The notes under the pieces are model-generated. The model was not told where the DNA came from and searched no databases. It was given only the letters and a program-made list of their open reading frames with translations. A program made the position numbers and the translations under genes. This document shows positions 3,176 to 54,191 of a stretch of DNA of 54,191 nt, piece after piece (the stretch's first letter is position 1; the number at the start of each line of letters is the position of its first letter). This stretch comes from Acutalibacteraceae bacterium. Its GTDB lineage: Bacteria > Bacillota > Clostridia > Christensenellales > UBA1242. The stretch lies in NCBI GenBank assembly GCA_963602035.1, contig CAVCHC010000003.1, positions 1 through 54,191 of the forward strand. The letters run 5' to 3'.

Positions 3176-3196
3176 AATGCAATGCGGGTTTGGGTA

Positions 3197-4410: not shown

Positions 4411-4439
4411 TTGACAAAGCGGGCAATTAATTTTATAAT
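4411..4439 (+). promoter_or_regulatory. consensus SigA-type promoter for the pheST leader
   Basis: TTGACA (4411-4416), an exactly 17-nt spacer, then TATAAT (4434-4439). Confidence 0.65.
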
Positions 4440-4445
4440 CAAATA

Positions 4446-4680: not shown

Positions 4681-4691
4681 AGGAGAAAACT

Positions 4692-5723: not shown

Positions 5724-5733
5724 GGAGAAAGTT

Positions 5734-13000: not shown

Positions 13001-13240
13001 AAATATGTGTGGCGGATAGCCTAAGGTTAATCGCTTATTTAATCGTATTGACGGTGGCGGGTAGACATCCATTGTTGGATATTGCGACGATGTTTGTAGA
13101 TAATCGCGCTGGTAACAAAAAAGTGGCGATGTTTTACGTAAATAATTAGATAGATACTTAGATAAATACGCTAACTTAAATATAAATACACTTACTTAAA
13201 TATGTGAGGCGGGCTTAATAAAGGAATGCTTGGAGGAGAT

Positions 13241-30417: not shown

Positions 30418-30429
30418 TTGGAGGAATTT

Positions 30430-31164
30430 ATGAGCAACAATTTTGAAAAGAACAATCAAGCGACTATCGTTGGAGTAATTGACAGCGACCTTGAATTCAG
30501 TCACTCGGTTTTGGGGGAGGGGTTTTATAACTTTACGGTTAAAGTGCCGCGCCTTTCAAGCGAAAGTGACCTTATCCCCGTGACTATCAGCGAGCGCCTT
30601 TGCGGCGGCATTAAAAAGGGCGATAAAGTGGCGTTTTTTGGCCAGTTTAGAAGTTATAATAAGATGGTTGGGGGCAAAAGCAAACTTATGCTTACGCTGT
30701 TTGTTCGCGAAAGGCTTGACCCCGAAACCACAAGCGACATTAATGAAATTCGCCTGACGGGCTATATCTGTAAAGAGCCGATTTTCAGGACGACGCCGTT
30801 TGGCCGCGAGATAAGCGACCTTTTGGTGGCGGTCAATCGCGCGTACAATAAAAGCGACTATCTTCCGTGCATCGCGTGGGGGAGAAACGCAAGGTTTTCG
30901 CTTAACCTTCAAGTGGGCGAAAAGATAGATATTATCGGGCGCATCCAAAGCCGCGTTTATCAAAAGCGTATTGATGAGAACACGGTTGAAAACCGCACGG
31001 CGTATGAGGTGTCAGTCGGCAGCATCGCCCTTGCGGATATGGGCGACGCGCTTGAATATTCGTCTCTTACGGGCGCACGCACCACGGGCACGGGCGACTA
31101 CACAGCCAGCAACCTGTTAAACCCGCAGGCCGCCAGCGCCACCTTTGGCAGCAATGCTATGTAA
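30430..31164 (+). CDS. single-stranded DNA-binding protein-like protein with two tandem OB folds
   Basis: 244 aa with a GGAGG RBS 6 nt before ATG 30430. OB2 (NEIRLTGYICKEPIFRTTPFGREISDLLVAVNR...DYLPCIAWGRNARF...GEKIDIIGRIQSRVYQ...RTAYEVSV) follows the SSB pattern. OB1 (aa ~10-100) is a more divergent copy. There is no acidic D-D-D-I-P-F tip. Confidence 0.6.
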   Translation: MSNNFEKNNQATIVGVIDSDLEFSHSVLGEGFYNFTVKVPRLSSESDLIPVTISERLCGGIKKGDKVAFFGQFRSYNKMVGGKSKLMLTLFVRERLDPETTSDINEIRLTGYICKEPIFRTTPFGREISDLLVAVNRAYNKSDYLPCIAWGRNARFSLNLQVGEKIDIIGRIQSRVYQKRIDENTVENRTAYEVSVGSIALADMGDALEYSSLTGARTTGTGDYTASNLLNPQAASATFGSNAM

Positions 31165-33186: not shown

Positions 33187-33194
33187 AATTTCTC

Positions 33195-36100
33195 CTAAGG
33201 TTTCATTTTTAGCATTTGCGTCCACTCGTATTGAGCGGATACTTGGGCAATCAGGCTTGACCCGACCGCGATTATTGCGCCCGCGCCAAGGCCAATAGCG
33301 GAGGCGATGGCTGCAATTTTGCCTGCTGCGGCCAGCTTACCAAGAAGTGGCGCAAGAGGCGGACATTTAGCAACAATAGCAACCACGGCGATAACTCCAA
33401 GCGCAACCAATGCACCTTTCATTATGTCACCCGCAACTTCTGCCCACTCGCCAGTTGGCACGTTGCCTTGCCAGAACGGAAGCACCATTGCTGCAATTTG
33501 TTTTTGGGTGTTGATTGTAATGTTGCTTACAATCGCGCCGCCGTTAAGGTCAACGATGTTTCTGCCCATTGGCGCAACAAGGCCAACAAGGTCAGTTACA
33601 AACGTGCCCGTAAACATTGTGCCGCAAGTAAAGATTGATGAAAGGAAGTTGCTAAGTTTTTGCCAGTTGTTTGGCGTTTGTTCGTTGGTTTCTTGGCTGT
33701 ATGAAAGCGTGTCACTGTTAGAGTAGGTAAGGGTAAGCGCGCCAAGTTTTTCAATATGTTCATATCCAAGGCTGGCCTCGTTATAGTATAGATACGGCCT
33801 TATTGCCTTTTTAACGCTGCCGTTTTTGTTAAACGTAAGATTTTGTTGAGGCTGGAACTTAGCGGCCAGCTCTACGTGCGTAACAGCGCAGTCGCCACTG
33901 TTAAGATAGAACGACGTGAAGTTTTCGCTTGTGATAGGCTGATAGAAATCGCCATCAGGGCAAACCAACGCCTCACAGTCATTAGCAATCTGGGTGTAAA
34001 GGTCAACCGCGCGCGTGTTGTTTTCAATCAGCTCGTCAACCAACTCTGTTGCCGATTTTGACACATACGTGCCCGTGAACCAGCCAAACACGTCAATCAC
34101 GCGAATTTTAAGCATCTTTGAAAGGTCAAAGGTTGGTTCAACGCTTGTGTAGTTTCGTAAAATGTTGTTGATAGTTGGGATAAAGTCTTGATAGTTAGCA
34201 ATCCCCGCGCTTTCAATCTCGCTTGAATACTCGCGAAGCATTGCGTCATAACTTATCCCCGTGCCTAGATAAAACTCAAACAATCCGCGCCCGTTAAGCT
34301 TAGATTTTTCGTTGATAGATTTAAAGGTATCCGTTTTTGCAAACGTTTGAAGAATTTCAAGCATTGTGGTGATTTGTTGCATCGTTATAGTTTCTCTTCT
34401 TGCGCCTGCAACTGCAAGTGCGTCAGTTAGTTTATCAATAACGAACGCGCCGTTTTCAAGGACGTAAATCGTGTAACTTGAAAGGTTGTTTTGAATGTAA
34501 CGAATGTTTTCGCTTGACCCGCGCGACGTCATTATAATCGACTTGCCCGAAGTGCTTGATACCTTTGCTACAAGTTTAGTGGCCTCGCGTGCGTATAAAA
34601 GTTTAAGCGTAAAGTTACAGTCAGAGAACTTAAACGTTGGGTCAGTTAAAAGTTTGCTGCTAGCAAACGCGCGGTTATAGAAGCCCGAAATTAAGCTGAT
34701 GTCGCGGTTAGAGTTTCTGTCATACATTGAAACGTCGTCAAGGCCGTTGGCTTCAAGCAAGGCTTGCAGTTTTTTGATGTAATCACTGTCGTCAAAGGTA
34801 AACGGCGTTATGGTTGTGTCGCGCTTGGTGTTGCCCGCAAGGTCAGTGTAGGTTGGGCTAGATAGGTTAACCTTAACGGTAGGGAAGCCTGACTTAGGCA
34901 GAGCACTAACAACATAATTTACGCGCCAGTTAGCAATGGTTTTTTGCGCCTCGGTTAGGTTTTCTGCGTCAATTACCTCGCCGCCGATATTAGCGCTTAC
35001 AACGGTCATCGTGCCGTCAGCGCCGCGCTCTATGTTTAAGATGTCGCCATCGCTGTTGATTGGGTAGGCCGTTGGTTTTAAGTCATTAATATCAAGATAT
35101 TTTTTGTTGTTAAGCGAAATTTGGATAAGCCCGCGTTTGATGGTTGTTTGAGGCCCGTTGATAGTGTTGGTTTCAAAATAATAGCCATAGTTGCTTGGTA
35201 CCGACGAGTTAAACAACGTTATGTTGGTTTCGCGATAGAAGTTAGACGAGTTTAACGTAACTGTTTGCATAATCGCGTTGCCCTCATCGTCAATCTTGCC
35301 CGTTGAATAGCTGTTAGGGATGATTTCAATCTTGTCTTTGGTGCGGTCTTCAAACTTGCGATAAACGTATTCGCCCGTTTTATATTTAAGGTAATATTTA
35401 ACAACTGGCTCGCCGTTTGCGTCAACGATAGGGTTGCCACTTTCGTCGGTTACGGCTTCTGGGATAAGCGACCTTTCAACGCTGATTAAACTTGATTTAA
35501 CGCGCTGGAAGGATGAAAGACGGTTACCGTTTTCGTCAAACATCGTTTCGATAAAGCGGGTGACTTTGTCTTCGCCCTCGGTGTCTATGATTGAAACGAA
35601 CGAGGTTTGGTTAACTTGGTCACGGTTAACGTCAGTAGCAACGTCAACCTCTTCGATTTCAAAGCTTATAACATAGCTCATTGGGGCAAAGTATGCGCCA
35701 ACCACAATTTTATCGTTTACTGGATAAACGTAAAGATTGTTTCGCGCGTTTTCAGGGTTAACTAAGAATAACTGAGTTTTGCCTTGCTCGCTGCGGTCAA
35801 ACCTTAACTTGTCTATCTTTGAATCGGCATAGATGGCCTTGATTTCGTCAATCGTTTTAGGCTCATTGCCGCCGTCCGTGTAAAAGATTTCGTCAGTATA
35901 ATTGTCACTTGCCCAGCCGATAAACTGACTGAACGGATAGGTTTTGGTTGAGATTATCGCTGGCTCGCCGTCTGCTACGATTGAAATAGTTGAGGTTGAA
36001 AGGCGGCCGCTTGACGAGGTTGGGTCATTATCCAAATCAACGCCCGCAAGACGCTGTCCTTCAAGCGCTGACTTATCATTGCTGTTTTTAGCAATCAAGT

Positions 36101-39100
36101 CGTTATAGGTGTTTTGAAGGTCGTCAGTTAGGTTTTTAAGGCGAACTTCAACCTGAATAAGTGCCTTTTCATAAAGCGCGATAACTTGCATATCGCCAGC
36201 AACAACGCTGTCAAGAGTGTAAGTATGGGTGTCTTCGTCGTACTTGATTGATTGAAGGTCATTGCTTACGCCATAAAGATATGGGATAACTTTATAACTG
36301 ATGTAAGAATTTTCTTCTTCAAGTTTTTTGCCCTCTGCAAACGGGTTAATTGTGTTTGTTGAGGCGCTGTTAATTATAACAAAGCCTTTAAAGAACCAGT
36401 TGCTGTTGGTTGATTTTGCGCTAAGCGTAAGAGTTGAACCAACACGAACATAGTCCTGACTGATAAAGTTAAGCGCTTGGTTTTCGCCGTTAATCTTTTG
36501 CGTAAAGGCTTTTGCGTTTTGCGTTGAGGTTACCGACAAGCTGTCACTATATTTATCAGTTATGGTTGAACTGATGCCCATTTGAAGTTGGTTAAACCTT
36601 GAAATAAGGTTAGATATGTCTTTCTTGGTGGCGGACTTATCCGCAATAAGCGCGGTAAGTTCGTCATAAAGCGATTTAAAGCGGTTTACCACGTAGCCCG
36701 TGCGATTACTTAAACTGTTAAGCGTTGGGGTGGTGTAGCCCGCCGTTAACGTGATGTTGCCAAGTTGCTCGGTTATAAACTTTAAGCCGTTTTCAGTGAA
36801 GTTGCCATCGTCGGCTGAAATCTGGTCATCAGGCTTGTTTGTTTGCCTTGAAGAGATGATTGCTTGGATGGTTTCTTCGTCTTCGTCAAGCGTGTTTTGG
36901 TCTTTAAAGTAATAATAGGTTAGGTTGCTTGACGATGTTTCGCCCGGCTTGTTGCCTCTTATCAAGTTGTTGTTTCGGTCAAGGATGTCAAGGATAGTTG
37001 ACGTGTTAGACTTAAACACAAAACTTGTTTCGGTGTTAGGCGTAAGCGCATCAATGCCAAACGTGGTGCCGCTTGACGTGTTAGGGCTAAGGATGCCATT
37101 GGTTATTGAACTTAACGCGTCGGAAGCGGAAATTGCGGCGTTGATGTATTTGCGGTTAAAGCTGAATATGCCAGCATAGTCAGCAACAAACGACATGTTT
37201 TGTTTTGCAATGTATGTGTAAGTTGAAACGCTGTCTACGTCGCCGCCAAAGCTTACAAGCGCCGAAACGTCGCCAAAACTTTTAGCACGCGTTATCGTTT
37301 TCCAATCGGTCAAAGATACGCCGGTAACACCTGTGTCTGCCAGGCGATAGGTAAAGCCGCCCGCGCCGATACTTTCGTAAACAAGTGCGTCGTAATAATA
37401 TTCGCCGTCAGTTACCTTTGTAACAAGAGGCCAGGTTGAATAGCCAATCGTGTTAAATGGCAGGTTTTTAGTTGGCGCGTCGATGGTAACAACGTCGCCT
37501 TCTTCAACCCAAATCTGGATAAAGATTTGTGAAAGCGGGTCACTTGCGTTTGACGCGTGGCCTTTTCCTGCCTTGCGGACTTCTTCAAGTTCAAGGCCGT
37601 TAACGCGAATTGTAAGGGTAATGTCGTCAACCTTGTCATTGTTGTCAGCAAGCAGGGCATAGATGAACTGAACGCTAAACATTTGCGTTGCGTTAAGGTT
37701 AAGCGCCTGATTTTGATAGAACTCGCTTAAATTAACGATGGCAAATGGGTTGTTGCTGCCGCCTTTAACGTACGTGTAGCCAGACAAGATGTTGCCGTTG
37801 CCGCCCGTAAAGTTTTTAAACTTATACATTACGTCCGTGCCGCTTGCGTCAACGCTTAATGCCTGATAAGGCTTGCCCGCACTTGCTTGGGTAAAGCGCG
37901 CGTCCCCGATATAGAACGTATCTTCTTTTTCAACCGATGCGATTGAATAGGTGATTGTTATGTACGTCTTCCCGTCAATCGTTTCAGTTTGAACGTAAGC
38001 GCGGCGAACATCACCGTCTTTGGTGGTAAGGTCAAACGTTTTAGTGTCAGCAAGGATGCTTAGAACGCTGTTAGTATTGTCTTTATCTTTGCCAAGATAG
38101 ATATTGTCGTTGTTATTCGATAGGTCATAGTTCATCGAAACGATAATCTTTCTTACCTCTTCGTTAAACTTTGCATAAACCTCGGTAACGTCTTCGTAGG
38201 CATTTGGGTTAAACGCGCCGTTTTTGGTTATAAGCGCGCCCGTTTTGGCGTTATACCAGCCCTCAAAAATCCAATAGCCGTTGCCCTTTGCGTTTAAAAC
38301 AAGGTTGTCGTTAGCAAAGTATTCAAGCGTTTTGATTGTGAACGCGTCCGCCAAAAAGTCAGTAGTTTCAACATCGTCGCTTGACCCGTTGGCTGATTTT
38401 AATGCCGTTTTGGTTATAAGCAGGCCAAGGGTAGGGGTGTTAAATTTTGACTTATAGTTATCTTTGCCAGCGCCGTTTAAGCGGGTTTTGCCCTCGCTGT
38501 CAAACAAGCCAAACGAAACGTCGACCTTTTTCTTTTGGTTAAAGGTTGCGATTATCGTAAAGTTGTTGTTTGATTTAAACACCTCTGAGAACTTGTCGCC
38601 ATTATCTGGAATAACGGTGTTGTTGTAATAAAAGCCTAAGAACTTATCATCAATTTTATCTTGATTATCTGGGTTAGTGTCAAAGCCAAGTTCGCCTTCG
38701 GTGTCAGGCAGCAGTCTTTGAATGGTAGACCCAACAAGATAATAATATAAAACAGGAATTAAAGTCCTTGTTCCGTTAATATAATCTTGAACGTGATTGA
38801 TGCCTTCTTGGCCTTCTATCGTGCCGTCATAGTAATAATATGCGTCGGTGTAAAGCAGGTAATGCTTAGGTGCGGTGCCATCGTCTTTGCCAAGCGTACG
38901 CCCGTCATAAACGTCAAGCGTTATAACCTTAACAAAAAGGGCAGTAACTTTAACGTCGTGAACATCATCGTCGTTAGCAAACGCAAATTCAAGGGTAACG
39001 TCAGTGATGTAAGTTTGCTCAAACTTGCTTTGGTCAGGGTCGCTAAATTTTGGCGTTACAACCGCGTTAGGGATGCCGTTAAAGCCTTCGCTGTAATTAA

Positions 39101-48100: not shown

Positions 48101-51100
48101 TAAGGTTTTCAATGCGGTTTTCGCAGGTGACGGTAAAGCCGATATAGTCATAAAGGCCTTCGCTTATAAAGTCTACCGTTACGTTAGTTGAAACGTTTGC
48201 AAAGAAGGTTGCAAAGTATTTAACGTTTTCGTGGGTCAGTTTAAACAGCCCCGACGTGTCTTTGTTTTCGATGGTTGAAAGGGTGTTTATAACTTCTTTA
48301 ACCTCGTTGCCGTCTTCGTCAATGTATGTCACAAGGTAGCCCGACTTGCCAATGCCAAACCCAGAAAGGTTTAAAACAGAGGTCAGTTTGTTAAGTTTTA
48401 AGGTAAACTCGCCATTTTCATATTTGGCTTCTTTAACATAAACGTAAGGGGTGAACTCGATGTTGTTATAGTAATAACCCAAGCGTCCGCCGATTTCGGT
48501 TTTAAGGTATTCAAGCGTAAACACGTCTTGATTGCCCGCATTTTTGATGTCTACCGACGCGCCGTCTTTGTAATAAACGATAACCGAGCCGCCCTGGTTT
48601 AATGGGCCGTTTTCAACCTCGGTTGACGTGTCTATGCTAAACACGCGTTGATAAACTGGCAAAATTACGTACCTGCCAGCGTTTTCTGGCAAAAATGCAA
48701 AGATGTTAGAGTTTTTATAGCCCGAGTCGGCCAGATACTGGTTTTCAGCATTGTCGTAATAGATAATGCCAGAGTTGTATCGCGAATAAACAACCCATTC
48801 TTTAAACCTGTAATAAACGTCGGCGCCCGCGTTAACGATAGGGTCAGCCACAAACATAACCTTTTCTTTGCCGAAAAGGAAATAGGTTTCTTTGGTGTCG
48901 TATGAGTCAAGAATAGGTATGCTTTCTTCGCGGGCATAGCCATAAAGGTCATCGCGCGTTACGTTTGCGCTTGTGCGATAGGCGCGCGTTACGCCCGAGA
49001 TGATAACCTCGTCATAGTTATAGTCGCTTGCAAGGTTAGAGATGTTGCCAAGCGTAAGCCCGTCAAGTTCGTTGCAGACGTCGTTTAAGTCAAGCTCGCC
49101 TGAGTTAAACAGGATGGTGCCCGTCTTTTTGTCAGTAGTGTAGCCGTGAATGTCAAAGTAACCAACGTTGGTTATTTCTTTTTTGCTTGTTTTCCAGATA
49201 TAGCAGTCTTCGTCTTTAAGCGGCTTAAAGTATGAAAACTTTCCATCGGCGCCCAAAACGTAAATATCCGTCATCTCTTGGGTTTTGATATATACGCGGT
49301 TAGAGTAGTGCCCGTTGGCGTCCATCTCGTCCGTCCAAAAAATATTGCCATCATCGTCAACGTAAATCTCGTTAACTTTAAGCGTAACGCCGTCTGCATA
49401 ATCAAACACAATATTGCCATCGGCGTCTTTGATAACAGCATACGCGTACCCGCCGCCGTCAAGCGCGGTAAGTTTAAACGCGTCGATTAGGCTCATATCC
49501 TTGCGTGACAGGGCGAAATACACGTTGTTTATATAGTCATTCGCGTCAATGTTTGCGATAGTGTCTTTGAATGAATAGGTTGAAAAATCATAGATAAGCG
49601 AAGATGAACTGTTACTTAGCTGCGTGCTCATAACTTCGGTATAGAACACCTTTTTAACGTCAAGCGACAGGTTGACCTCGGCCAGCTCGTTGATTTTGTG
49701 ACGAACTGAAAGATACAAAACTGGGTTAGGGTAAGGCGAACCCGAAAGCCAATAAGACCCCGGATACCCCTCACGTATTGCCTTTTCGCTTGAATAGTCA
49801 ATGTTGTAATAATAGCCGTTGATGTAGTCAAAGATATAGCAATTCGTGTCGTTATAGCTAAGCAGGCTTGAAAAACTTGGATAGATTATCGTTTCATCAG
49901 GGTTGCTGGTTGGAACGAATTTGCCCCAAACCATCACTTGCGTTTTTTGGTTGGTGTTTTTGTCAAGAATAAAGGCCTCGCGCTTGGTTATATAGGCCGT
50001 TGACGTGGTTTCGCATCTTAAATTGTGGCGCGTGTTGTGGTCGTCTAAGAAGTAATAGTGCGCCACCTTTTCAAGGTTGTTGGTTGTAACAACTTTTGCG
50101 TTATTTTCATCAGGAACGCCGTCTTTTAAAAGCGCAATTCTTAAAAAGACGCTTGTGTCGCCCGCGCCCTCGTTAACCGTAAACGTAGGGAAGATAAAGT
50201 ATTTATCGTCAACACCAGTGACCGTGTTGCCGTCAATAATCCAGTTGCCGTCATAGGTAACGTTGGTTGCGGCCTGGCCAGTTTTGCGCGAAATCGCAAT
50301 GTAGCCGATTTTAAGGGTAAGGCCATAACCGCTGTCGTTATTGATGGTTTTGTAAGTGCCCGTTTTAAAGAAGTTTTGGGCGGCACTGTCTTCGTCTTCA
50401 AACTTAAAGTCGCCAGTGGCAAGATTTGAAATAATTGAGTTGCTTCTAACAAATTTTGTGCCGTTAGCGTAATATAGTTCGCCGCCCGCGCCCAAGCCAA
50501 ATGAAAGGTTAAACAGGGCGGTAAGGTCGGTTCCGTTAGAGTCTGTGATTTTAAAGGTAAAGGTTGTTGGGTCAAAATATACCTTATAGATGGTGCCCGC
50601 AATTTCGATGGAGTTATAGATGCTGTCAGCCGTGTATTCAACTTGAACCTCAAAGTCGTCAGCATACTCGTCGCCCTCGCGGTGGCCATTAAAGTCCTCA
50701 GTGTAATAGAAGGTAAGCGTGCCCTCAGCCTCGCCGCGGGTTGAGTATTGACGAATTTGAACGCTTGTTTTAGTGACAGGGCGAACGTAATAGAAATAGT
50801 TTGAAACAATCTTCTCGCCAAGCAGGTTATAAAACTCTTGGTAAGCAGTTGGGTTGTTTAAAATGGTTTTGCCCAAAACGATTTCAGGGTTGCTTGTGTA
50901 GTTAAAGTCATAGAACCAAACGTTGCCGCCCGTTGTTGATTTGCCGATTGGGGCAGTGTAATAATAGGTGTCGGTGCCGTTTTTGGTAACTGACATTATG
51001 TCATAATAGAAATAAACTTGTTGGTTATTAGTTCCGTTGCCGAACGTCAGGTTGCTTTTGTATGCCGTTACGTTTGACGAAATGTCGCCATTTGTTGTGT

Positions 51101-53879
51101 TTGAAACGGTGAACTCAGCAACGGTGTACGTATTGTCAGCATTTAATGTAAAGAAGAAGAGTTTGTCAGAAAAATCGGTGTATTTATTAGTATTTGTGTT
51201 GCACTCTAAAACGCCGCTTTCGCACAGGTTGCCCTTAGCGTCTTTTACGTAGCCCGCGTTTAAAAAGCTTCGCGCGTCTTCGATGTTTTTAATGGTAAAG
51301 ATTTCGTCTTTTGTTCCGCCGTTGCCATCGTCAACTTTAACAGGGGTAGTGTGCGCGTTAAAGTCACTAAGAACGGTGTTTTTGATAAGCGTAAACGTGG
51401 TTACGTTTGAAACGGTTGAAACAACAACGCAGTCAAACGATTTAACCGATTTGTCAGCATTGTAAGCATAGTTGCCATAATAATAGCTGTTATAGGTGGT
51501 AACGCCCGCCTTGTAATTACTGTCACGGTAACTGTAAGTATAAATACTGTCGCCAAGGGTGACGTATGTGCCCGTTTCGTCAAGCACGGCGCCCGCAGCG
51601 TTAGACTTTTCGGCCTTTAAATATTGGCCGGTTTTAGAGTTAAAGATGATGTCAAACCCGCCGCCCGTGTAATAAACGCACGAGGTTATTGATGGGGTTT
51701 CAACGTTGTATGAAACAAGCAGGTGATTTTCAGGCACGATGATTGAAAGAATGATGTTGGTTGTAACGTACCCGTGGATGTCTTCTTTGGTTGTAACCGA
51801 TTTGATGATTTCGTATTTAAAGGTTGGGTCAAGCGGGCTGTCAGCGTCAACGAGGGTGCCGTCTTCGGTAACCTTTTTGATGTTAACGATGATGTTAGAA
51901 GAGTCTGCGTACTCCGTGCCGATAATGCCCGCAAGCGTTTTATCACTTTGGGCAACGAAAAGGGCTTTTGTTACGGCCTCGCCGATAAGTACGTTGCTCA
52001 TCGTTGCGTTATGGAATGACCAGTTGGTTTTGATGCTTGCATTGTCGCCCGTTTGGGTTGAGGCCTTTTCAAACACGATGGCCATATTGTGTTCAAGCCC
52101 AGTTACCCTAAACGTAGAGCCGTCTATAACGAACCCAACGGTTACACTTCGCCCGCTTTCGGTAGTAAACACAAACACGTTGCTGCCCGTTGTGCGGTAA
52201 ATGTAGTTAGACTCGTTGGCGTCAAGCGTATAAACGTCGTTTGACTTGGTGTATCCATTTTCGTCCGTGCCGATTAGGTAAAGAGAAAGGGTGTAGCCCG
52301 AAAGGTCGTGGTTTTTGTTTCCGCTGAAAAACTCGTCGCCAGCAAAAACGCTGCCCGATTGGGTAAAGTTTTTAACCTTGTTAAAGTTGGCATAGAACGT
52401 GTAGCCGCTTAGCGCGCGGTGAGCACAAACGTTAAGGGTTGAAAGGTTGATTTCGTTGCCCTCGTCGTCAATAAGGGTGGCGGTTGGGTCTGTAAAATCC
52501 GCGGTGCCCGTAATGCCAAGTTTTTCATAAAACAGGTTGTTTTTGGTAAGCGTGGTAAGGTTAACGCTTTGGCTAAGTACGCTTAAAGTTGGTGCCGCTT
52601 GGTTAAGGTAAAAGTGATTAGCAATAAACGCCTTAGTGTTGTCATTTTGAACAAGGGCGGTGTTAGTACTGGTAACAAAATTGTTTAGTCCCGCGATTGA
52701 AAGAGGAAGCGTGCCCTTTATGCTTGGGTTAAACTTGGCCTGGCTGTTAGTTGTCCACGAGCCTAGGGCATAGTCACTGCCCGCGTACGTTTTTCGATTA
52801 ACGCGGACGATGCGCCCCTCTGGGAAGTACCCTTCAAGGTAGGTAATTTTTGCGTCATCTGGGTTAGCAGTAACGGTAACTTTTTGTTTAGCAAAATAGT
52901 AAATATCTTTGTCGTATTCAAGGAAGCCGACGTTTGATACGTCGTCCGCGCTGTTAGGGCTGTAAACCGAGAAGGCAAGGCGGATGGCCTTAAAACCTGT
53001 AACGGATGAATACGCACTGTCTCCACGGCCGGTTTCGGTTTTGGCGATGGCCTTAACCTTTATCGTGCGGTCAGTGTTTTTGCCTTTAAGCATTGGGTTG
53101 AAAACAACGATAAGGCGGTTGTATGGGATGCCCGCTTCGGCGTTTTGAACGGGGCGGGTGGCGGTGTCGTCTTCGGCAACGCGGATGTAGTCAGCAGGCA
53201 AGCGCTTAGTTTCGCCGTTAACCTTTTGAGTGAAATAAATCGCGTCTGGGTTAAGGGTGGTGTACGTTTTGCCATCAGCCGTTGTTTTGGTTTGATAAAG
53301 TTGAACGGTTTCGTCAATATGGCTGGTTACGCGGATAGGCGACCCGTCAACAACGATTTCATAGTCAGGGAAAGTGATGTCTGTTGAAACGGCGCGATAA
53401 AGAGTGGCGGTTGAGCCGTCTTCTTTGTTTATGCACCAATTTGTGCCATTAAAATATATGGCCGATTTTTCGCCCGTGTAAGCGTCGTCTTTAAGGCGCT
53501 GTTGCTCTTCGGTTGACAAACTTACCTTTTCAAGAAGGGCAAGGCTGCTTTCGCTGTAATAGAAATTCGTGCCAAGATATTGGTCATCCTTATAAACGCT
53601 TTTCGTGTTTTTGGCGTAATAAGAGAAGTTCCACGAAAGGGAGCCTGTTATTGATTCGTCAATCTCGGTGCCAAGGTATGGGCTGTTAAAGGTAACAGTA
53701 GGCGCAATAAGCCTGCGGTTGCCAAACTCGTCAAACGTGGTGTTGCCTTCGCTTGATTGCGAAAAGTCACACGCGACCATGCCAAAACAGCAGCTGATTA
53801 AGATTGCAAAAAAACAAAGCATTTTGGCTAGGCTGAATTTTGATTTTTTTGATTTCAAACTAACGGTTGTACTTTCCAT
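33195..53879 (-). CDS. giant (6,894 aa) predicted surface lipoprotein with divergent InlB-B-repeat-like (FxGW) modules and a C-terminal two-helix membrane anchor
   Basis: Uninterrupted 20,685-nt ORF with an AAAGGA RBS 6 nt upstream of ATG 53879. The N-terminus MESTTVSLKSKKSKFSLAKMLCFFAILISCCFGMVA-C37 has a basic n-region, an h-region and a lipobox-like MVAC. At least 13 recurrences of aromatic-x-(F/L)-x-G-(W/F/Y) are present (LLGWY, FMGWY, FVGWA, LIGWY, FKGWY, FIGWF, FLGFK, FLGYY, FIGWV, FLGFY, FEGWY, FKGFV, FIGWA). Each is followed by a strand ending in ..A.F/Y. The tail is GALVALGVIAVVAIVA...KIAAIASAIGLGAGAIIAVGSSLIAQV. Confidence 0.85.
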   Translation of the reverse strand: MESTTVSLKSKKSKFSLAKMLCFFAILISCCFGMVACDFSQSSEGNTTFDEFGNRRLIAPTVTFNSPYLGTEIDESITGSLSWNFSYYAKNTKSVYKDDQYLGTNFYYSESSLALLEKVSLSTEEQQRLKDDAYTGEKSAIYFNGTNWCINKEDGSTATLYRAVSTDITFPDYEIVVDGSPIRVTSHIDETVQLYQTKTTADGKTYTTLNPDAIYFTQKVNGETKRLPADYIRVAEDDTATRPVQNAEAGIPYNRLIVVFNPMLKGKNTDRTIKVKAIAKTETGRGDSAYSSVTGFKAIRLAFSVYSPNSADDVSNVGFLEYDKDIYYFAKQKVTVTANPDDAKITYLEGYFPEGRIVRVNRKTYAGSDYALGSWTTNSQAKFNPSIKGTLPLSIAGLNNFVTSTNTALVQNDNTKAFIANHFYLNQAAPTLSVLSQSVNLTTLTKNNLFYEKLGITGTADFTDPTATLIDDEGNEINLSTLNVCAHRALSGYTFYANFNKVKNFTQSGSVFAGDEFFSGNKNHDLSGYTLSLYLIGTDENGYTKSNDVYTLDANESNYIYRTTGSNVFVFTTESGRSVTVGFVIDGSTFRVTGLEHNMAIVFEKASTQTGDNASIKTNWSFHNATMSNVLIGEAVTKALFVAQSDKTLAGIIGTEYADSSNIIVNIKKVTEDGTLVDADSPLDPTFKYEIIKSVTTKEDIHGYVTTNIILSIIVPENHLLVSYNVETPSITSCVYYTGGGFDIIFNSKTGQYLKAEKSNAAGAVLDETGTYVTLGDSIYTYSYRDSNYKAGVTTYNSYYYGNYAYNADKSVKSFDCVVVSTVSNVTTFTLIKNTVLSDFNAHTTPVKVDDGNGGTKDEIFTIKNIEDARSFLNAGYVKDAKGNLCESGVLECNTNTNKYTDFSDKLFFFTLNADNTYTVAEFTVSNTTNGDISSNVTAYKSNLTFGNGTNNQQVYFYYDIMSVTKNGTDTYYYTAPIGKSTTGGNVWFYDFNYTSNPEIVLGKTILNNPTAYQEFYNLLGEKIVSNYFYYVRPVTKTSVQIRQYSTRGEAEGTLTFYYTEDFNGHREGDEYADDFEVQVEYTADSIYNSIEIAGTIYKVYFDPTTFTFKITDSNGTDLTALFNLSFGLGAGGELYYANGTKFVRSNSIISNLATGDFKFEDEDSAAQNFFKTGTYKTINNDSGYGLTLKIGYIAISRKTGQAATNVTYDGNWIIDGNTVTGVDDKYFIFPTFTVNEGAGDTSVFLRIALLKDGVPDENNAKVVTTNNLEKVAHYYFLDDHNTRHNLRCETTSTAYITKREAFILDKNTNQKTQVMVWGKFVPTSNPDETIIYPSFSSLLSYNDTNCYIFDYINGYYYNIDYSSEKAIREGYPGSYWLSGSPYPNPVLYLSVRHKINELAEVNLSLDVKKVFYTEVMSTQLSNSSSSLIYDFSTYSFKDTIANIDANDYINNVYFALSRKDMSLIDAFKLTALDGGGYAYAVIKDADGNIVFDYADGVTLKVNEIYVDDDGNIFWTDEMDANGHYSNRVYIKTQEMTDIYVLGADGKFSYFKPLKDEDCYIWKTSKKEITNVGYFDIHGYTTDKKTGTILFNSGELDLNDVCNELDGLTLGNISNLASDYNYDEVIISGVTRAYRTSANVTRDDLYGYAREESIPILDSYDTKETYFLFGKEKVMFVADPIVNAGADVYYRFKEWVVYSRYNSGIIYYDNAENQYLADSGYKNSNIFAFLPENAGRYVILPVYQRVFSIDTSTEVENGPLNQGGSVIVYYKDGASVDIKNAGNQDVFTLEYLKTEIGGRLGYYYNNIEFTPYVYVKEAKYENGEFTLKLNKLTSVLNLSGFGIGKSGYLVTYIDEDGNEVKEVINTLSTIENKDTSGLFKLTHENVKYFATFFANVSTNVTVDFISEGLYDYIGFTVTCENRIENLNIMGPAYKYQLAEVNNQLYIVEDVSAANELTLRDAPIAKLNNFKINVVNILTGKISSEFAGYFHNSNNDLIAGELGLDEDGKLNTRLMYKTGYYDRGSNIMLSALPDEGYRLLGWYDEFGNSLYELYGEQTRTYNESDKILRAYKYNGNYYYKRTKNADGSFSYSDDDLVPARLLYTVRGLYINTGTSVAPNYIEVFYSAAKDAYYYDSAYTIAVDKKYTHKLNTTTGDEEVIVKEMAHFDAITKVTSGDGLAYYFLNSVQVYKRNYNEKMYDFGNTGDDGTFDYYRAVNSGNVRFEGNNLVILSLHCNVKFTARFKEVYQSMIMTDGEFEGITVEAIYYYNAQDNSQANRLDNNLNVIEMDPDNIANVGKDITASSIDSSLFKLFDLDDPNMGFYSATIRDLINQPKGYVALSKTNSTPTAEDNAWSRLIGGNGLVDALGNAGKRAVKGDDESFALTDLYFDTETTVLMVVKTLASAPLQLHTLGIPSDFNVQPIIFPTADYITENASKRQVGANQTGAATDYRADYLYYLLEVTYNRDPENDYADLIVHPTREISVVWDILMGNYSATYGQFFDTEISYTGRRLADGVTKTNTLSINLNNYFDFNTDENQFTIRLKDGKAADFTNVLRQLTDEMVDHDLGGDFGLVANLIDSRKAYTRLVDLFIEIEDILKAGGGEFSFAGVRLNQGYLDSLPDEYLDDLKASVFFDSTKNEWITAGLDKIGEIYDTLSSLVIPNDGSRDEKFKNFKYDPAFNNRNDYSQDTHPCITKFVNAPVGDGSVNFINLTAIEMFNFSISSITIDGYDKDGNIIYSDENAHPLGTSADDNSFIFYTAVGTNDRTYMGGVNYVDGFGGLYYNGSVTTSVGGIQFTRKYIDRDPDYQTNVAGLPKYAYRDFLLAENTLLLFEGLANQSPNEGYDFMGWYQQKRIHDVYDRYFDKNGVRLNVINFNENSDYELVKRENGTFAIYKKGKDGKSTPVKEDKNTPLTQRIFFIDEQTLELFYADGTPVKIEGKDASEQLYDYREWTSLELVSTSYRHPFVALANADTIITAMFKRYATLNFQFDPTEFTVNSSVSVDSMSQPLRYSLIALSKADGTRAVVDENKTKQEIYETFYEQYNLHKDDYSYLISITGAFYVDATPTYTLTPVGGYRLDGVYNAVTTLPADFIRKNVVEFDDNNNTIIKYSHNSTLGVTDMSTTLINVGTEENPNLKPLSTYDALNLVGIIYATVSINNLFASLPYTPDGTATKDASTLSTTLIAKAQRVTLLYTKVEGYIVENEDTKERELSPYHFLLSNVTGLKGAYTFGENDRVYFNSKLFFETVNVLKLGKQPALTLDLNNIANTTDIVLCFANDFYGRSTGFIDEWLVSALMKNKIQKMIDDTIAKTLEKNKAGADYTFTEAENAQIKNAVLKQLQEQYKTVADIETEIRASSEFATALAELGYVVEEERDPDTDEVIRPRTATGLAKTDAQMYYFVEISGTTLAFYGYFDNTKTDDQALYLQTSLQEGSEEKAIDHWYINAQTPSTISYKEGKGLNEDAEFPTEQEIKFEYAETDPKSELNGKFVLSKENLTYHLRAIIKQQERFSVGFAFARSLDRDNIDDSTFMTLLDMLYKKAESELGEGATQADIYAKMESYLISGQDGTFENLIKITYSGVKYEALSADKNIETSEDPTNTNVNGSLTTKHHEGRYDTATHFVLSIENRFVVINQTIAVDGTNLVTAGDVYAFVGWANAEGNIISTALSIEVTEIGTYQARFVKTARIDFINEDGTEVINMKNIEIVSEAKIQDTTEHLSQVFGYYDGGAYYYALVGFPVSYTITPDDGFIIKEVSKKGLSDETFIPIEAIEVNNTTKAATYQIKATEDSVIKINTQPGFMLTVDQMVFSDYMQTTAGTKLTAPILYTTDPSIKESNIFAKGTKIKLTFNAGTNPYKLIGWYVNNVKVEADDDGAIEIELNENTVVELRVLKTITVILKASTDYSETGTVLSSVNAKVVRVSDATILYNGSANPSYARITNILAGEKLNISATFNNELTFKGWYYLGDTDNTPISTNSEFEFAINGNNPHLNTSNEITLVAVFAFTKTITISKNLNTDGTYRPSNETKFDVMIEYTNVYGETIQTTLGSSSSITINVLNDSSSKIKITAIVDKNYVDKYFFQYYSNDTSGTSAFSYEEIYEVLVSNLTYSTISANFTQGRTATFFRRMNDNLYTGTDVVINVNYSPSILDGKTLDGTADTEEGKEFVQLGFTEKGKATIVANAYVNTESASEQMRSHLKFIGWFIDGKEASTFTGVTVNGNTITITDPYNVAMFKPDTNDAVIEARYAQVANITFTKTLIGGNANSTKTFNDSITANLYLNNLVDGQVKILQIPLGKGVSTGSHDAAYLYSYIALTASRYAGFKFLGFKVTKNGGDGEFITDGTGKADTADVVRYFIGETGGEECFDYKIEAVYGLEYTLNMIGVNMGGGEVSFAGCPTTVGAGETITLTSSGGSVFLGYYAKNKNGEYVLISNDENATFDGSTLIDNYGDDYGNIIIEARYTKTVNINVEAYDRNGNLVNRFTNTYPYGVEATLTAPADFKAWALANADGTNRLYAYYSTNSKLTILPLEDKTYYCLCDATVTDVGPFNYSPRPKTVLVEDSTGLIPDGTTYTPLAGDYLTQETNGESGAITSYGVNYNAAIKAGYLFIGWVAGLKYVVGEDAENYHYMPFSNSLTIGAENMEYYDVFAVFVKAHKTIIKRNGTTHAGSFNFTFSTSPASSSPSPVYTEINENGDITIYTAVDGTLNITAVDGYELVSGANDPTVSTIRIVKTIKVGTIINPKTTESRVSDNGDNDNSTESKDNTLADSYDATQTPSPSNDIDFDFDATKGSIKTYPNTDATSTDKTFAFDNILTIAKPNEGYFLARYEVTTHLSNGAEITRTYYHHRNIPFIALYGNVTVKAVFMKAFNIAIDNANDPTNNGDINVKETTTDTDTVQHKTVEIKAQEGYRIAGLIVDDQYYKVNYSEGFNGIPNAVVTPKFSDPDQSKFEQTYITDVTLEFAFANDDDVHDVKVTALFVKVITLDVYDGRTLGKDDGTAPKHYLLYTDAYYYYDGTIEGQEGINHVQDYINGTRTLIPVLYYYLVGSTIQRLLPDTEGELGFDTNPDNQDKIDDKFLGFYYNNTVIPDNGDKFSEVFKSNNNFTIIATFNQKKKVDVSFGLFDSEGKTRLNGAGKDNYKSKFNTPTLGLLITKTALKSANGSSDDVETTDFLADAFTIKTLEYFANDNLVLNAKGNGYWIFEGWYNAKTGALITKNGAFNPNAYEDVTEVYAKFNEEVRKIIVSMNYDLSNNNDNIYLGKDKDNTNSVLSILADTKTFDLTTKDGDVRRAYVQTETIDGKTYITITYSIASVEKEDTFYIGDARFTQASAGKPYQALSVDASGTDVMYKFKNFTGGNGNILSGYTYVKGGSNNPFAIVNLSEFYQNQALNLNATQMFSVQFIYALLADNNDKVDDITLTIRVNGLELEEVRKAGKGHASNASDPLSQIFIQIWVEEGDVVTIDAPTKNLPFNTIGYSTWPLVTKVTDGEYYYDALVYESIGAGGFTYRLADTGVTGVSLTDWKTITRAKSFGDVSALVSFGGDVDSVSTYTYIAKQNMSFVADYAGIFSFNRKYINAAISASDALSSITNGILSPNTSSGTTFGIDALTPNTETSFVFKSNTSTILDILDRNNNLIRGNKPGETSSSNLTYYYFKDQNTLDEDEETIQAIISSRQTNKPDDQISADDGNFTENGLKFITEQLGNITLTAGYTTPTLNSLSNRTGYVVNRFKSLYDELTALIADKSATKKDISNLISRFNQLQMGISSTITDKYSDSLSVTSTQNAKAFTQKINGENQALNFISQDYVRVGSTLTLSAKSTNSNWFFKGFVIINSASTNTINPFAEGKKLEEENSYISYKVIPYLYGVSNDLQSIKYDEDTHTYTLDSVVAGDMQVIALYEKALIQVEVRLKNLTDDLQNTYNDLIAKNSNDKSALEGQRLAGVDLDNDPTSSSGRLSTSTISIVADGEPAIISTKTYPFSQFIGWASDNYTDEIFYTDGGNEPKTIDEIKAIYADSKIDKLRFDRSEQGKTQLFLVNPENARNNLYVYPVNDKIVVGAYFAPMSYVISFEIEEVDVATDVNRDQVNQTSFVSIIDTEGEDKVTRFIETMFDENGNRLSSFQRVKSSLISVERSLIPEAVTDESGNPIVDANGEPVVKYYLKYKTGEYVYRKFEDRTKDKIEIIPNSYSTGKIDDEGNAIMQTVTLNSSNFYRETNITLFNSSVPSNYGYYFETNTINGPQTTIKRGLIQISLNNKKYLDINDLKPTAYPINSDGDILNIERGADGTMTVVSANIGGEVIDAENLTEAQKTIANWRVNYVVSALPKSGFPTVKVNLSSPTYTDLAGNTKRDTTITPFTFDDSDYIKKLQALLEANGLDDVSMYDRNSNRDISLISGFYNRAFASSKLLTDPTFKFSDCNFTLKLLYAREATKLVAKVSSTSGKSIIMTSRGSSENIRYIQNNLSSYTIYVLENGAFVIDKLTDALAVAGARRETITMQQITTMLEILQTFAKTDTFKSINEKSKLNGRGLFEFYLGTGISYDAMLREYSSEIESAGIANYQDFIPTINNILRNYTSVEPTFDLSKMLKIRVIDVFGWFTGTYVSKSATELVDELIENNTRAVDLYTQIANDCEALVCPDGDFYQPITSENFTSFYLNSGDCAVTHVELAAKFQPQQNLTFNKNGSVKKAIRPYLYYNEASLGYEHIEKLGALTLTYSNSDTLSYSQETNEQTPNNWQKLSNFLSSIFTCGTMFTGTFVTDLVGLVAPMGRNIVDLNGGAIVSNITINTQKQIAAMVLPFWQGNVPTGEWAEVAGDIMKGALVALGVIAVVAIVAKCPPLAPLLGKLAAAGKIAAIASAIGLGAGAIIAVGSSLIAQVSAQYEWTQMLKMKP

Positions 53880-54191
53880 AACATATCCTTTTGTTTAGTT
53901 TTTGATTTTTTATTATATAAATACTTATTTATATACGCATATAATATCATATTTTGTCGAAGACACCAAACGATTGAAAAGGGTTTTGAAAGTTTAAGAA
54001 AATTTTTTTGTGGACAGGCATTTTCAAAAAATATTGTGGCCAGTTTTAAAATGCGGTTTTATGCGAAGGAAATAAATTTTTGATGCGTTTTAAATAACTT
54101 TTTGGACAGCCTCCAAAAAAAGTTTTTAGGTTGTTTTAAAATAAATTTTTAATCAGTTTTAAAACCAGACAAGCTGTTGGCTAGTTTAATG

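Follow-up and report, generated by a model that had tools for sequence, protein, structure and literature searches.

The window (the whole analysed stretch of 54,191 nucleotides) carries a single open reading frame of 20.7 kb that is a genuine, intact gene. It comes from a gut species of uncultured Clostridia that is sister to the 'uncultured Clostridiales bacterium UMGS2070' / GCA_964324905.1 species. The encoded protein, 6,894 aa long, appears from its sequence to be fixed in the membrane by both of its ends, and its gene is followed by that of a 621-aa membrane protein with a bacterial SH3 (SH3b) domain. On the best reading of the sequences, the two proteins belong to no described family and represent a new, lineage-restricted one, though of a generally known kind. 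Functionally, we favor, with middling confidence, a giant fibre or coat on the cell surface, anchored in the envelope, evolving fast and docked to peptidoglycan via the partner.

An intact giant gene

The giant gene spans exactly 33195..53879 on the minus strand, including the stop codon, as called in the initial annotation; all features given below lie on the same strand. Its translation starts with ATG and has exactly one stop, which is terminal, and the longest other open reading frame overlapping the 20.7 kb reaches at most 226 aa. The proposed ribosome-binding site is plausible, with a Shine-Dalgarno sequence AAAGGA (53886..53891) located 6 nt upstream of the ATG. Apart from it, positions 53880-54191 are AT-rich intergenic sequence. 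The window ends 312 nt upstream of the gene, and no sigma-70-like promoter was scored on the minus strand within these 312 nt. In L010, a 91%-identical relative, the intergenic region upstream of the giant gene is ~650 nt long and the upstream gene, which weakly resembles sigma-70 region 4, is divergent. With a chance expectation of (61/64)^6894 ~ 1e-144, an open frame of 6,894 codons is not attributable to chance.

The gene was found uninterrupted, at 6,894-6,896 aa, in four separate assemblies: Logan SRR13434657 (6,894 aa), NCBI GCA_964324905.1 (6,895 aa, on a 1.06-Mb contig), Logan ERR11029085 (6,895 aa) and Logan ERR14791231 (6,896 aa). Four loci at ~93% identity had no stops in the coding frame across 3,329-3,973 codons, and at locus L002 the coding frame had 0 stops vs 63-178 in the other frames. 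The dN/dS ratio against the sister species was 0.09-0.17. The gene is thus neither an assembly artefact nor decayed, in line with the initial annotation.

The gene has a negligible probability of being an artefact, be it a chimera of the assembly, a pseudogene in decay, or an insertion from a mobile element or phage that was misread as one gene. It was called in pieces in three relatives (L010, L011 and L012), the UMGS2070 MAG carries it only on small ~1.7-1.9x contigs, and one of these contigs, L003, has a stop as its final codon. However, in L011 and L012 the gene is broken where the scaffolds have N-runs, and the split in L010 is a single frameshift on a contig with 2.3x coverage. Together with the four intact assemblies, a dN/dS of ~0.1 and full-length homologues at 32-34% identity, this effectively refutes an assembly artefact or a pseudogene. 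Phage or plasmid cargo was rejected as well: tblastn searches gave 0 matches for aa 1-3000 among 50,697 phage records and for the final 3,000 aa among 72,556 plasmid records, no PHROG family matched the giant, and the flanking genes are housekeeping genes. The giant is single-copy and keeps a fixed chromosomal position beside gyrBA, murG, SSB and a deacetylase in every lineage sampled.

Relatives and mosaic evolution

Relatives were searched for exhaustively with HMMER, using only the C-terminal 1,200 aa of the giant as query against 1.84 billion representative proteins. This search returned six real relatives, all of them clade members and two of them full-length (6,928 aa and 7,090 aa). Once loci from contig scans were added, ~8 distinct sequences were available, beside many variants at 90-98% identity. 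A partial query with the N-terminal 400 aa found one fragment. The nearest named NCBI relative is a 'MAG: hypothetical protein' (MBQ7579039.1), in agreement with the earlier statement that no family could be named for most of the length.

Relative P0002 aligned with the giant in one BLAST HSP (aa 9-6882 vs aa 7-6913, 34% identity), P0004 was colinear with it at 32% and 28% identity, and L005 represents a further lineage, 36% identical. Length (6,894-7,090 aa) and strict colinearity are kept across lineages that are 28-36% identical, and purifying selection is strong along the whole length. The proposed check for homologues with conserved synteny was positive, with the SH3b partner adjacent to the giant.

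The giant-partner pair has diverged about twice as fast as housekeeping proteins. Identity to L005 is 36% for the giant and 35% for the partner, vs 76% for GyrA, 83% for the deacetylase and 76% for SSB. A divergence hot spot, in which identity falls to 80% at the nucleotide level and dN is 0.14, lies at aa ~4230-4364, within a zone of weak modules (see below). The evolution of the giant is also mosaic. Its C-terminal module (aa ~6490-6894; 33198..34412) matches a segment that was allelically replaced between two relatives, L011 and L005, which are 98% identical. On either side of the last ~405 aa, these two loci have 97-99% DNA identity, with sharp breakpoints, vs ~70% nucleotide and ~45-50% amino acid identity within it. 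The swapped allele is homologous and keeps the transmembrane (TM) hairpin and all family motifs. The rapid divergence, the allele swap and the hot spot resemble the evolution of a surface antigen, and we count them in favor of a fibre or coat.

Composition and domain content

The composition of the giant is T/N/Y/D-rich and Cys-poor, in keeping with the initial annotation (T 9.95%, N 7.98%, D 7.31%, Y 6.51%, C 0.41%), and the chain is beta-leaning overall. Regular expressions found no HExxH, P-loop or RTX motif (GGxGxD) in the giant, two GxSxG matches (aa 3283 and aa 4300), and no usable LPXTG. The sole LP.[TSA][GAN] match, LPKSG at aa 6327, has no TM segment following it and lies ~490 aa ahead of the first C-terminal TM helix. 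The sorting-signal models of NCBIfam had no match either, and a sortase substrate was rejected. SLH, CWB2, choline-binding and LysM domains were absent from the giant in Pfam at E <= 1. The regular expression, Pfam and NCBIfam searches thus agree with the initial annotation, which had noted no recognisable catalytic motif or wall-sorting signal.

Across the Pfam, NCBIfam, PHROGs, PADLOC and PDB searches, the only match in the giant was Flg_new_2, an InlB B-repeat-like module at aa ~2016-2076 (47652..47834). This sole Pfam-significant domain (PF18998, 26.9-27.4 bits vs a cutoff of 23.6) was detected in 3/3 full-length homologues, and an iterated HMM gave it an E of 2e-23. PDB sequence and profile searches returned no credible match (best E 0.0064-0.64, over short stretches).

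Two further InlB-B-repeat-like modules were significant with the iterated HMM. One, at aa 2836-2879 (45243..45374; E 3.9e-15), also had self-BLAST and profile matches to the module at 2030-2090; the other, at aa 5190-5242 (38154..38312; E 3.1e-16), has the motif YWIFEGWY. Profile self-matches delimited a zone of further weak modules at aa ~3620-4480 (40440..43022), with GY.F.GW[YF] motifs at aa 3862, 3964 and 4204; the orthologous positions in P0002, P0004 and L005 scored with the iterated HMM. By the same method, the window protein has three modules of this kind, ~55-70 aa long, and its relatives have 3-5. They are scattered, not tandem, and account for <10% of the giant length. In Listeria-Bacteroides repeat proteins, by comparison, such ~70-aa modules usually dominate the chain and stand in tandem. 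Modules of the Flg_new type are typical of surface proteins of Firmicutes and Bacteroidetes. Self-BLAST, self-phmmer and profile self-searches revealed almost no other internal repetition, so that the 'recurring beta-strand-like modules' of the initial annotation are reduced to these 3-5 significant ones.

About 90% of the chain has no recognisable domain, and it could therefore hold hidden enzymatic or other activities. The most conserved block, aa ~1350-1800 (48480..49832), has 43-56% identity to distant homologues in a three-way conservation profile and contains invariant motifs, including PYPNPV and AGTTxAYRTS; it had no Pfam or PDB match. Conservation is lowest at the midpoint of the protein, in a variable, helix-leaning region at aa ~3150-3600 (43080..44432), with 21-22% identity, large indels, gaps up to 40% and an excess of helix formers.

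Structure prediction with AlphaFold2 gave unusable models, both for the C-terminal 1,200 aa (6-sequence MSA, mean pLDDT 40.9) and for aa 1296-2100, with the most conserved block inside (3-sequence MSA, mean pLDDT 28.8). A Foldseek search with the C-terminal model, at this pLDDT of 40.9, had no match at E <= 1e-3 (TM-scores <=0.06). Because both predictions failed, the 'fibre or adhesin-type' label given at first gained little or no support from structure, and we continue to infer it.

Predicted anchoring at both ends

Hydropathy analysis identified hydrophobic segments at aa 13-41, 6815-6847 and 6852-6882, and none between. The N-terminus (aa 1-37; 53769..53879) reads as a signal peptide with a lipobox (...FGMVAC|DFSQ). 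Lipidation is predicted at Cys37, with which the h-region closes. The secretion or lipoprotein signal postulated earlier was thereby recovered, in a lipobox-like context whose Cys is invariant in three deep lineages, at position 35-40. Signal peptide and lipobox were present in all three of them, and lipidation is predicted. The lipoboxes are GMVAC in the window protein, MFVGC in P0002 and AFSAC in P0004, which we take to fit the permissive PROSITE PS51257-type pattern. Their -3 residue is non-canonical, being M or F (A in P0004), not the L, V or I of [LVI][ASTVI][GAS]C, and Cys37 lies slightly past the usual position range for lipoproteins.

At the C-terminus, the two hydrophobic helices (aa 6815-6847 and 6852-6882; 33234..33437) are predicted to form a membrane hairpin. 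These helices, also noted previously, are part of a pattern conserved in six sequences (PFW-G-xP / helix / Gly-rich turn / helix / N(I/V)xW), and a short tail with a conserved Trp follows the hairpin. The lipobox Cys, the hairpin, the lack of a hydrophobic stretch between them and the Flg_new_2 modules all point to a surface or envelope location.

The SH3b partner

The partner gene (31321..33186) encodes 621 aa, comprising a signal peptide, a ~330-aa beta-rich ectodomain, an SH3b region, a C-terminal TM helix and a KKKINHD tail. A start at GTG 33225 (634 aa) was replaced by the conserved ATG 33186, and the partner thus begins 8 nt past the giant stop codon, without overlap. Its AGGAG Shine-Dalgarno sequence (33192..33196) overlaps the TAG stop codon of the giant (33195-33197), and the junction reads ...CCT TAG GAG AAATT ATG. 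Translational coupling of the two genes is plausible from this overlap and the 8-nt gap.

In every relative with downstream sequence, a partner of ~620 aa was found within 8-46 nt downstream of the giant, with orthologues of 619-637 aa directly downstream in L004, L005, L006, L007-L009, L011 and L012. The two genes form a conserved unit, as the initial annotation had supposed. A profile search with the partner returned relatives only at identities of at least 90%. The SH3_3 domain (aa 529-585; 31432..31602; PF08239, 29.5 bits vs a cutoff of 27) was also detected in the L005 partner, while the L006 partner was below the cutoff (24 bits vs 27). No other match to the partner was found in Pfam, NCBIfam, PHROGs or PADLOC. 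When aligned by eye, without scoring, two more stretches ahead of SH3_3 (aa ~366-528) looked SH3b-like.

The partner has an ultra-conserved stretch of TM helix plus cytoplasmic tail (WTVLQVIGLVFVGLNVIFLIVLLLVKKKINHD; 31324..31419), in which 81% of the positions are invariant across three deep lineages, vs 0-27% in the ectodomain; VKK[KR][IL]NHD is invariant also in a fourth lineage, L012. Helix and '...VKKKINHD' tail are nearly invariant at an identity of only ~35% for the giant-partner pair. Such invariance suggests that they interact in a fixed manner with some conserved component of the cell. The TM hairpin of the giant is far less conserved than this helix, and direct TM-TM pairing is therefore unsupported by co-conservation. 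Between L005 and L011, moreover, the hairpin allele differs and the partner gene does not (98.6% identical).

Possible function

The data show that the gene is real and under selection, that it has a family with shared synteny and conserved anchoring signals, and that its evolution is mosaic. From these features, we infer export, lipidation, topology, complex formation, peptidoglycan binding and an adhesive or shielding role. The giant would be exported by Sec and lipid-modified at Cys37, and the C-terminal two-helix hairpin would also hold it in the membrane, so that ~6,770 residues would be outside. This external chain would be beta-rich, essentially non-repetitive and multidomain, with a few modules of the InlB-B-repeat type. 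The giant would be co-transcribed, and probably co-translated, with the type-I membrane partner, whose SH3b domain(s) may bind peptidoglycan. The invariant, Asn-containing TM helix and the KKKINHD tail of the partner could dock to the giant hairpin or else to some conserved factor in membrane or cytoplasm. The pair would thereby build a wall-anchored surface fibre or coat, which contacts host mucus, particles or other cells, or shields the cell surface from them. Surface exposure of the giant would explain its fast evolution and recombination. Two features count against a fibre or an adhesin: the giant adhesins known to us are made of tandem repeats, which this protein lacks, and fibres are not usually anchored by both ends.

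Strong purifying selection over the whole chain and a strictly conserved length are no worse a fit to a structural machine than to a simple adhesin. The giant may, more doubtfully, be a structural element of the envelope: a load-bearing or spacing scaffold, fixed in the membrane at both ends and tied to peptidoglycan, for example a coat, a ruler of the wall zone, or a component of septa or cell-cell junctions, with length as the selected property. Such a scaffold would fit the length and strict colinearity kept at 28-36% identity, the selection over the whole chain, the single copy in a fixed place next to the same housekeeping genes, the two predicted anchors (lipobox Cys and hairpin), and the invariant TM helix and tail of the partner. 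However, ~2x housekeeping divergence and C-terminal allele replacement are hallmarks of exposed, interaction-driven proteins, the Flg_new modules point to the cell surface, and the giant has no S-layer-type (SLH, CWB2) or cytoskeletal signatures. Unlikely is an undescribed two-component envelope organelle of this clade. Here, the giant, tethered at both ends, would run out through the wall with one half and back with the other, its variable, helix-rich midpoint (aa ~3150-3600) serving as the distal tip, and the SH3b partner, with its invariant TM helix and NHD-COOH tail, would fasten it to peptidoglycan and to some conserved factor of the cell. If true, this would be a new surface-appendage architecture, unlike pili, S-layers, sortase-anchored adhesins and repeat-based giant adhesins.

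Improbable, in our view, is a multifunctional exoprotein in which enzymatic or effector domains (glycan- or wall-degrading, or contact-dependent) lie hidden, and for which the exchangeable C-terminal ~405 aa would be the payload. There is room for such domains in the unannotated 90% of the giant, and the hidden carbohydrate-active and attachment domains of Omnitrophota giants surfaced only via structure prediction (bioRxiv 10.1101/2023.11.21.568195). The sharp C-terminal allele swap also resembles the CT swapping of polymorphic toxins. The exchanged module, however, is a homologous allele (~45-50% identical) with TM hairpin and family motifs, not a non-homologous toxin domain, and the downstream gene, 98.6% identical, does not co-vary as an immunity gene would; a polymorphic toxin was rejected for these reasons. 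Further, Pfam, NCBIfam, PADLOC and PDB profiles gave no Rhs/YD, RTX, LXG, CdiA, peptidase or glycosidase matches, and neither HExxH nor P-loop motifs were found.

Nearly all giant proteins known to us from bacteria consist of repeat arrays (adhesins) or are assembly-line enzymes. This one is a chain of ~7,000 aa with almost no internal repetition and ~90% of it outside recognisable domains. Its order and length are preserved despite divergence to ~30% identity, which implies ~6,000 residues of unique, selected structure. This structure is beyond description by current databases, and AlphaFold2 with few homologues could not model it. The gene takes up ~20.7 kb, possibly ~1-2% of the genome if the latter is small, as the 1.06-Mb contig might indicate, and the bacterium has been assembled repeatedly from gut metagenomes. 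Given this cost and this recurrence, the giant is probably central to the contacts of the organism with host or environment. For experiments, the partner offers a handle in its invariant TM helix and tail, and the giant in its exchangeable C-terminal module. In practice, the system would serve structural studies and cultivation-independent imaging as a target; it resolves no long-standing question yet.

Comparison with known systems

Like polymorphic toxins (CdiA, Rhs, LXG), the giant is a large, presumably exported protein in which the C-terminal few hundred residues can be swapped at a sharp breakpoint between near-identical strains. Unlike in these toxins, the swapped segment is homologous and contains the hairpin, the next gene does not co-vary, and toxin signatures are missing. 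It also differs from S-layer and other wall-bound proteins, as the sole wall-binding-type domain, SH3_3, is on the separate partner.

Omnitrophota giants have numerous TM regions and divergent SecA DEAD domains, or dockerin/thrombospondin repeats (bioRxiv 10.1101/2023.11.21.568195). Unlike these Archaeovorins and Dockerin-type proteins, the window giant has three hydrophobic segments, all terminal, and no Pfam matches to SecA, dockerin or TSP3. Giants of gut Clostridia with Listeria-Bacteroides (Flg_new) repeats have been interpreted as adhesins; they are 10,000-30,000 aa long, with many Flg_new and YG repeats, dockerin and LRR (bioRxiv 10.1101/2023.11.21.568195). Host class and habitat are the same, a domain of this type is present, and adhesion is a presumed role. 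In contrast to them, our protein has one module over the Pfam threshold and <10% of its length is modular.

Giant1-5 of Apilactobacillus kunkeei (3,000-8,000 aa) have N-terminal beta-solenoid domains, long imperfect repeat arrays and SH3b-like C-terminal domains, namely 2-4 DUF5776 domains (PMC12863079). They resemble the giant in size, N-richness, a Sec signal and origin from a symbiont of an animal gut niche, and the likeness extends to an SH3b-type wall-binding function in the system and diversification by intragenic recombination (PMC12863079). Unlike in Giant1-5, a second membrane protein carries the SH3b domain, and membrane anchors are predicted for both ends of the giant. DUF5776 had no Pfam match in the giant or its relatives, and Giant1-5-style repeats were not found.

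Ebh of S. aureus is built from dozens of FIVAR/GA-type helical repeats, for which Pfam had no match in the window protein, P0002, P0004, L005 or P0003. The giant further differs from Ebh in being beta-leaning, in having a lipobox, a two-helix hairpin and almost no cytoplasmic part, and in its dedicated SH3b partner. Ebh, a protein of ~1.1 MDa, combines a signal peptide with C-terminal TM/cytoplasmic anchoring and provides size-dependent surface shielding (PMC6548404). Both are very large Firmicute proteins, probably exposed on the surface in our case, with an N-terminal secretion signal and C-terminal TM anchoring without sortase, and the shielding by Ebh may serve, by analogy, as a functional model for the giant.

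A single long gene under selection

The initial annotation had described one uninterrupted reading frame, and the ORF list agreed: a minus-strand ORF (33195..53879) starting with ATG encodes the 6,894-aa protein, here called the giant, and takes up 38% of the window. Its translation has one stop only, the terminal one, and across all frames of these 20.7 kb every other ORF has 226 aa or fewer. The proposed ribosome binding site was also found, as a Shine-Dalgarno sequence (AAAGGA) 6 nt 5' of the ATG. By arithmetic, the chance of 6,894 open codons is ~1e-144. Elsewhere, the window carries the ordinary housekeeping genes of a Firmicute chromosome (obg, pheST, murF, ddl, murG, gyrB, gyrA).

The Logan assembly SRR13434657 contained an identical copy of the partner, the SH3b protein encoded just downstream of the giant, with a 6,894-aa gene call upstream. 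Partner variants of ~93% identity were found in NCBI GCA_964324905.1 (1.06-Mb contig) and two further Logan runs (ERR11029085, ERR14791231), and the gene upstream was called at 6,895, 6,895 and 6,896 aa. The GTDB genome 'uncultured Clostridiales bacterium UMGS2070' carries fragments of the giant (90.5–92% DNA identity) in which the frame stays open: in the related locus L002 the coding frame had 0 stops, and the others 63 and 178. For these fragments, dN/dS was 0.09 and 0.17. Four ~93%-identical loci had dN/dS of 0.11–0.12 and 0 stops over 3,329–3,973 codons. These were 98–100% identical to each other and 91–93% to the window, so the window derives from a sister species. The gene looked split in three related loci; two of the splits (L011, L012) are scaffold N-runs, and the third (L010) is a frameshift on a contig at 2.3x coverage. 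The giant is thus a real gene under selection.

A family with few relatives

The sole Pfam match of the giant was Flg_new_2 ('divergent InlB B-repeat') at aa 2016–2048 (26.9 bits, cutoff 23.6). NCBIfam, PHROGs, PADLOC and PDB sequence searches returned nothing; aa 1–3000 had no similarity to phage records, nor the last 3,000 aa to plasmid records. An exhaustive HMMER search of 1.84 billion representative proteins with the C-terminal 1,200 aa retrieved six true relatives: a 97%-identical fragment, two full-length homologues (P0002, 6,928 aa; P0004, 7,090 aa) and three partial ones. P0002 is NCBI MBQ7579039.1, 'MAG: hypothetical protein [Clostridia bacterium]'. BLASTP aligned it with the giant in one HSP (aa 9–6882 to 7–6913, 34% identity), and P0004 was colinear at 32% and 28% identity. 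A metagenome scan added the loci L005 (36% identity over the available 3,930 aa) and L006. Over the last 520 aa, the family comprised ~4 deep groups with roughly eight distinct sequences. Pfam searches with the homologues and PDB profile searches with family alignments gave nothing further.

Architecture and predicted topology

Composition was as initially described (T 9.95%, N 7.98%, D 7.31%, Y 6.51%, C 0.41%), and a motif search agreed that HExxH, P-loop and functional LPXTG motifs are absent; no RTX motif was found either. The 'recurring beta-strand-like modules' of the initial annotation found little support, as self-BLAST, self-phmmer and window-profile searches revealed almost no internal repetition. 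An iterated HMM seeded with the Flg_new_2 module found three significant copies (aa 2023–2076, 2836–2879, 5190–5242), three to five in relatives and one in the homologous fragment P0003. Sub-threshold copies around aa 3620–4480 were flagged by GY.F.GW[YF] motifs. All copies combined cover <10% of the chain.

In a three-way alignment the giant was conserved over its entire length, with peaks at aa 300–750, 1350–1800 (up to 56%) and 2700–2850, and minima at aa 3150–3450 (21–22% identity, gappy), 4950–5100 and 6450–6600. Residue propensities were beta- and turn-leaning overall. The only strongly helix-leaning stretch (aa ~3250–3600) lies at the midpoint, in the least conserved part. AlphaFold2 reached a mean pLDDT of 40.9 for the C-terminal 1,200 aa (6-sequence MSA) and 28.8 for aa 1296–2100 (3-sequence MSA), too low to assign a fold at this depth of homologues, and Foldseek found no match to the C-terminal model at E <= 1e-3.

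Hydropathy marked only three hydrophobic segments: aa 13–41 at the N-terminus, and aa 6815–6847 and 6852–6882 at the C-terminus. Cys37 closes the N-terminal h-region; this residue is invariant, in lipobox-like contexts (GMVAC, MFVGC, AFSAC). Six sequences share the C-terminal pattern PFW-G-xP, helix, short Gly-rich turn, helix, N(I/V)xW. From these conserved signals, the simplest topology would be an exported protein held by a lipid at its N-terminus and by a hairpin in the membrane at its C-terminus, with ~6,770 residues outside the cytoplasm.

The partner protein and its near-invariant tail

The proposed pairing with an SH3b protein was confirmed at the level of gene order: every relative with downstream sequence (L004–L009, L011, L012) had a 619–637-aa orthologue 8–46 nt 3' of the giant, followed by the same SSB-like and polysaccharide-deacetylase genes. 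In the window, the partner (621 aa) starts at a conserved ATG at 33186, 8 nt past the giant stop codon, which its Shine-Dalgarno sequence (AGGAG) overlaps. It begins with a signal peptide, followed by a beta-rich ectodomain of ~330 aa that belongs to no family, an SH3_3 domain, and a C-terminal TM helix with a KKKINHD tail. SH3_3 passed the Pfam cutoff in the window and L005 and fell below it in L006; two additional SH3b-like stretches precede it in the alignment, as read by eye. Wall binding by the partner is plausible.

Both the TM helix and the tail of eight residues (…IGLVFVGLNVIFLIVLLLVKKKINHD-COOH; window 31324–31419, minus strand) are almost invariant, while the ectodomains are ~30% identical. 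Among the last 21 residues, 81% were invariant in the three deep lineages compared, vs 0–27% in the ectodomain, and a fourth lineage keeps VKKKINHD. No NCBIfam sorting-signal model matched this region. In bitopic proteins, conservation is usually lowest in the TM helix. Here the helix, with a mid-membrane Asn, and the C-terminal tetrapeptide are invariant, which points to a specific interaction.

Rapid and mosaic evolution

Between the window and L005, identity was 76% for GyrA, 83% for the deacetylase and 76% for SSB, vs 36% for the giant and 35% for the partner. The pair thus diverges at a much higher rate than the core genome, and for this reason looks orphan. L005 and L011 were 97.4–98.6% identical in DNA over the giant body, partner, SSB and deacetylase genes, except for ~1.24 kb at the 3' end of the giant gene (~70% nt, ~45–50% aa identity). 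This segment (L011 4512–5755, L005 10594–11806, window ~33198–34412) encodes ~405 aa including the hairpin. Its breakpoints are sharp, the second at the giant stop codon, and the partner does not co-vary with it; the C-terminal module has undergone homologous allelic replacement. In the window's clade, aa ~4230–4364 had 80% nt identity, with dN and dS both raised. Exposed surface proteins typically show mosaicism of this kind. A study of the giant genes of A. kunkeei reported it as well (PMC12863079).

Neighbouring genes and orientation

Three genes from the partner gene, a 703-aa protein (26965–29076, plus strand) without Pfam or NCBIfam family has a ~490-aa acidic Ala/Gln/Asn-rich low-complexity N-terminus, a TM helix (aa ~495–520) and a ~180-aa extracytoplasmic C-terminal domain. 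It shares 24% identity over 176 aa with its positional counterpart in L005 (655 aa), vs 76% for the flanking GyrA, and is another very fast-evolving envelope protein. The SSB-like protein (30418–31164, plus strand; 248 aa) has its SSB domain only at aa 108–203, after a ~100-aa N-terminal extension; its gene and the neighbouring deacetylase gene are syntenic with the pair in all lineages sampled.

Also on the plus strand, a MurF-like ORF (13226–14911, 561 aa) matches its family from aa ~218, after an N-terminal extension, and a Ddl-like ORF (14924–16249, 441 aa) exceeds the usual length, with its match divided over two stretches; neither ORF reaches the curated cutoff of its best model. Two stretches within the first ~225 aa of a 513-aa ORF (17944–19485, plus strand) match the models of both UmpA and UmpB, subunits of Na,Li,K/H+ antiporters, suggesting a fused or duplicated subunit.

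GC skew was positive on the plus strand in all 2-kb bins (1–54191). The plus strand is therefore probably leading, and transcription of giant and partner would be head-on to replication, not the usual orientation for a Firmicute gene of such length. In L010, a 91%-identical relative, a divergent gene (L010 5–748, minus strand; 247 aa) lies ~650 nt upstream of the giant gene, beyond the end of the window. Its Sigma-70 region-4 similarity was weak and sub-threshold (E 1.2e-3, 18.9 bits vs 25.7), making a dedicated regulator possible.

Interpretation

With moderate confidence, we read the giant as a fast-evolving protein of the cell envelope that, once exported, is anchored by both of its ends. 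It would be expressed with a partner that binds peptidoglycan, perhaps in a complex with it, and form a surface fibre or coat. Such a structure would mediate or modulate contact with the surroundings, in an adhesive or shielding role. Strict colinearity and conserved length would also suit a structural envelope scaffold with length as the selected trait, a rather unlikely reading given that the giant diverges rapidly and recombines. More doubtful still is the idea of cryptic domains that would make the giant an effector or a multifunctional exoprotein: the C-terminus is exchangeable, but the swapped allele is homologous, and both a co-varying immunity gene and toxin signatures are absent. That the ORF is an artefact deserves almost no credence, its frame being open in related loci. 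We rate the giant as a very large Gram-positive surface protein of a new lineage-restricted family, whose two-gene design, non-repetitive and by prediction anchored twice, is unusual.

Comparison with known systems

In its workings the giant would come closest to Ebh of S. aureus, a protein with a signal peptide, a membrane anchor at its C-terminus and an effect on the surface that depends on its size (PMC6548404). Giant1-5 of A. kunkeei resemble the window's giant in SH3b-type wall attachment and evolution by recombination (PMC12863079), and the Flg_new-rich giant proteins of gut Clostridia have a domain type in common with it (bioRxiv 10.1101/2023.11.21.568195). Repeat arrays and FIVAR/GA, DUF5776, dockerin, SecA and LPXTG features are all absent from the giant; without repeat arrays or the domains of these systems, assignment to any of the three was rejected. 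Beside them, the giant–partner pair stands as an unusual, conserved entity that is well supported as real.
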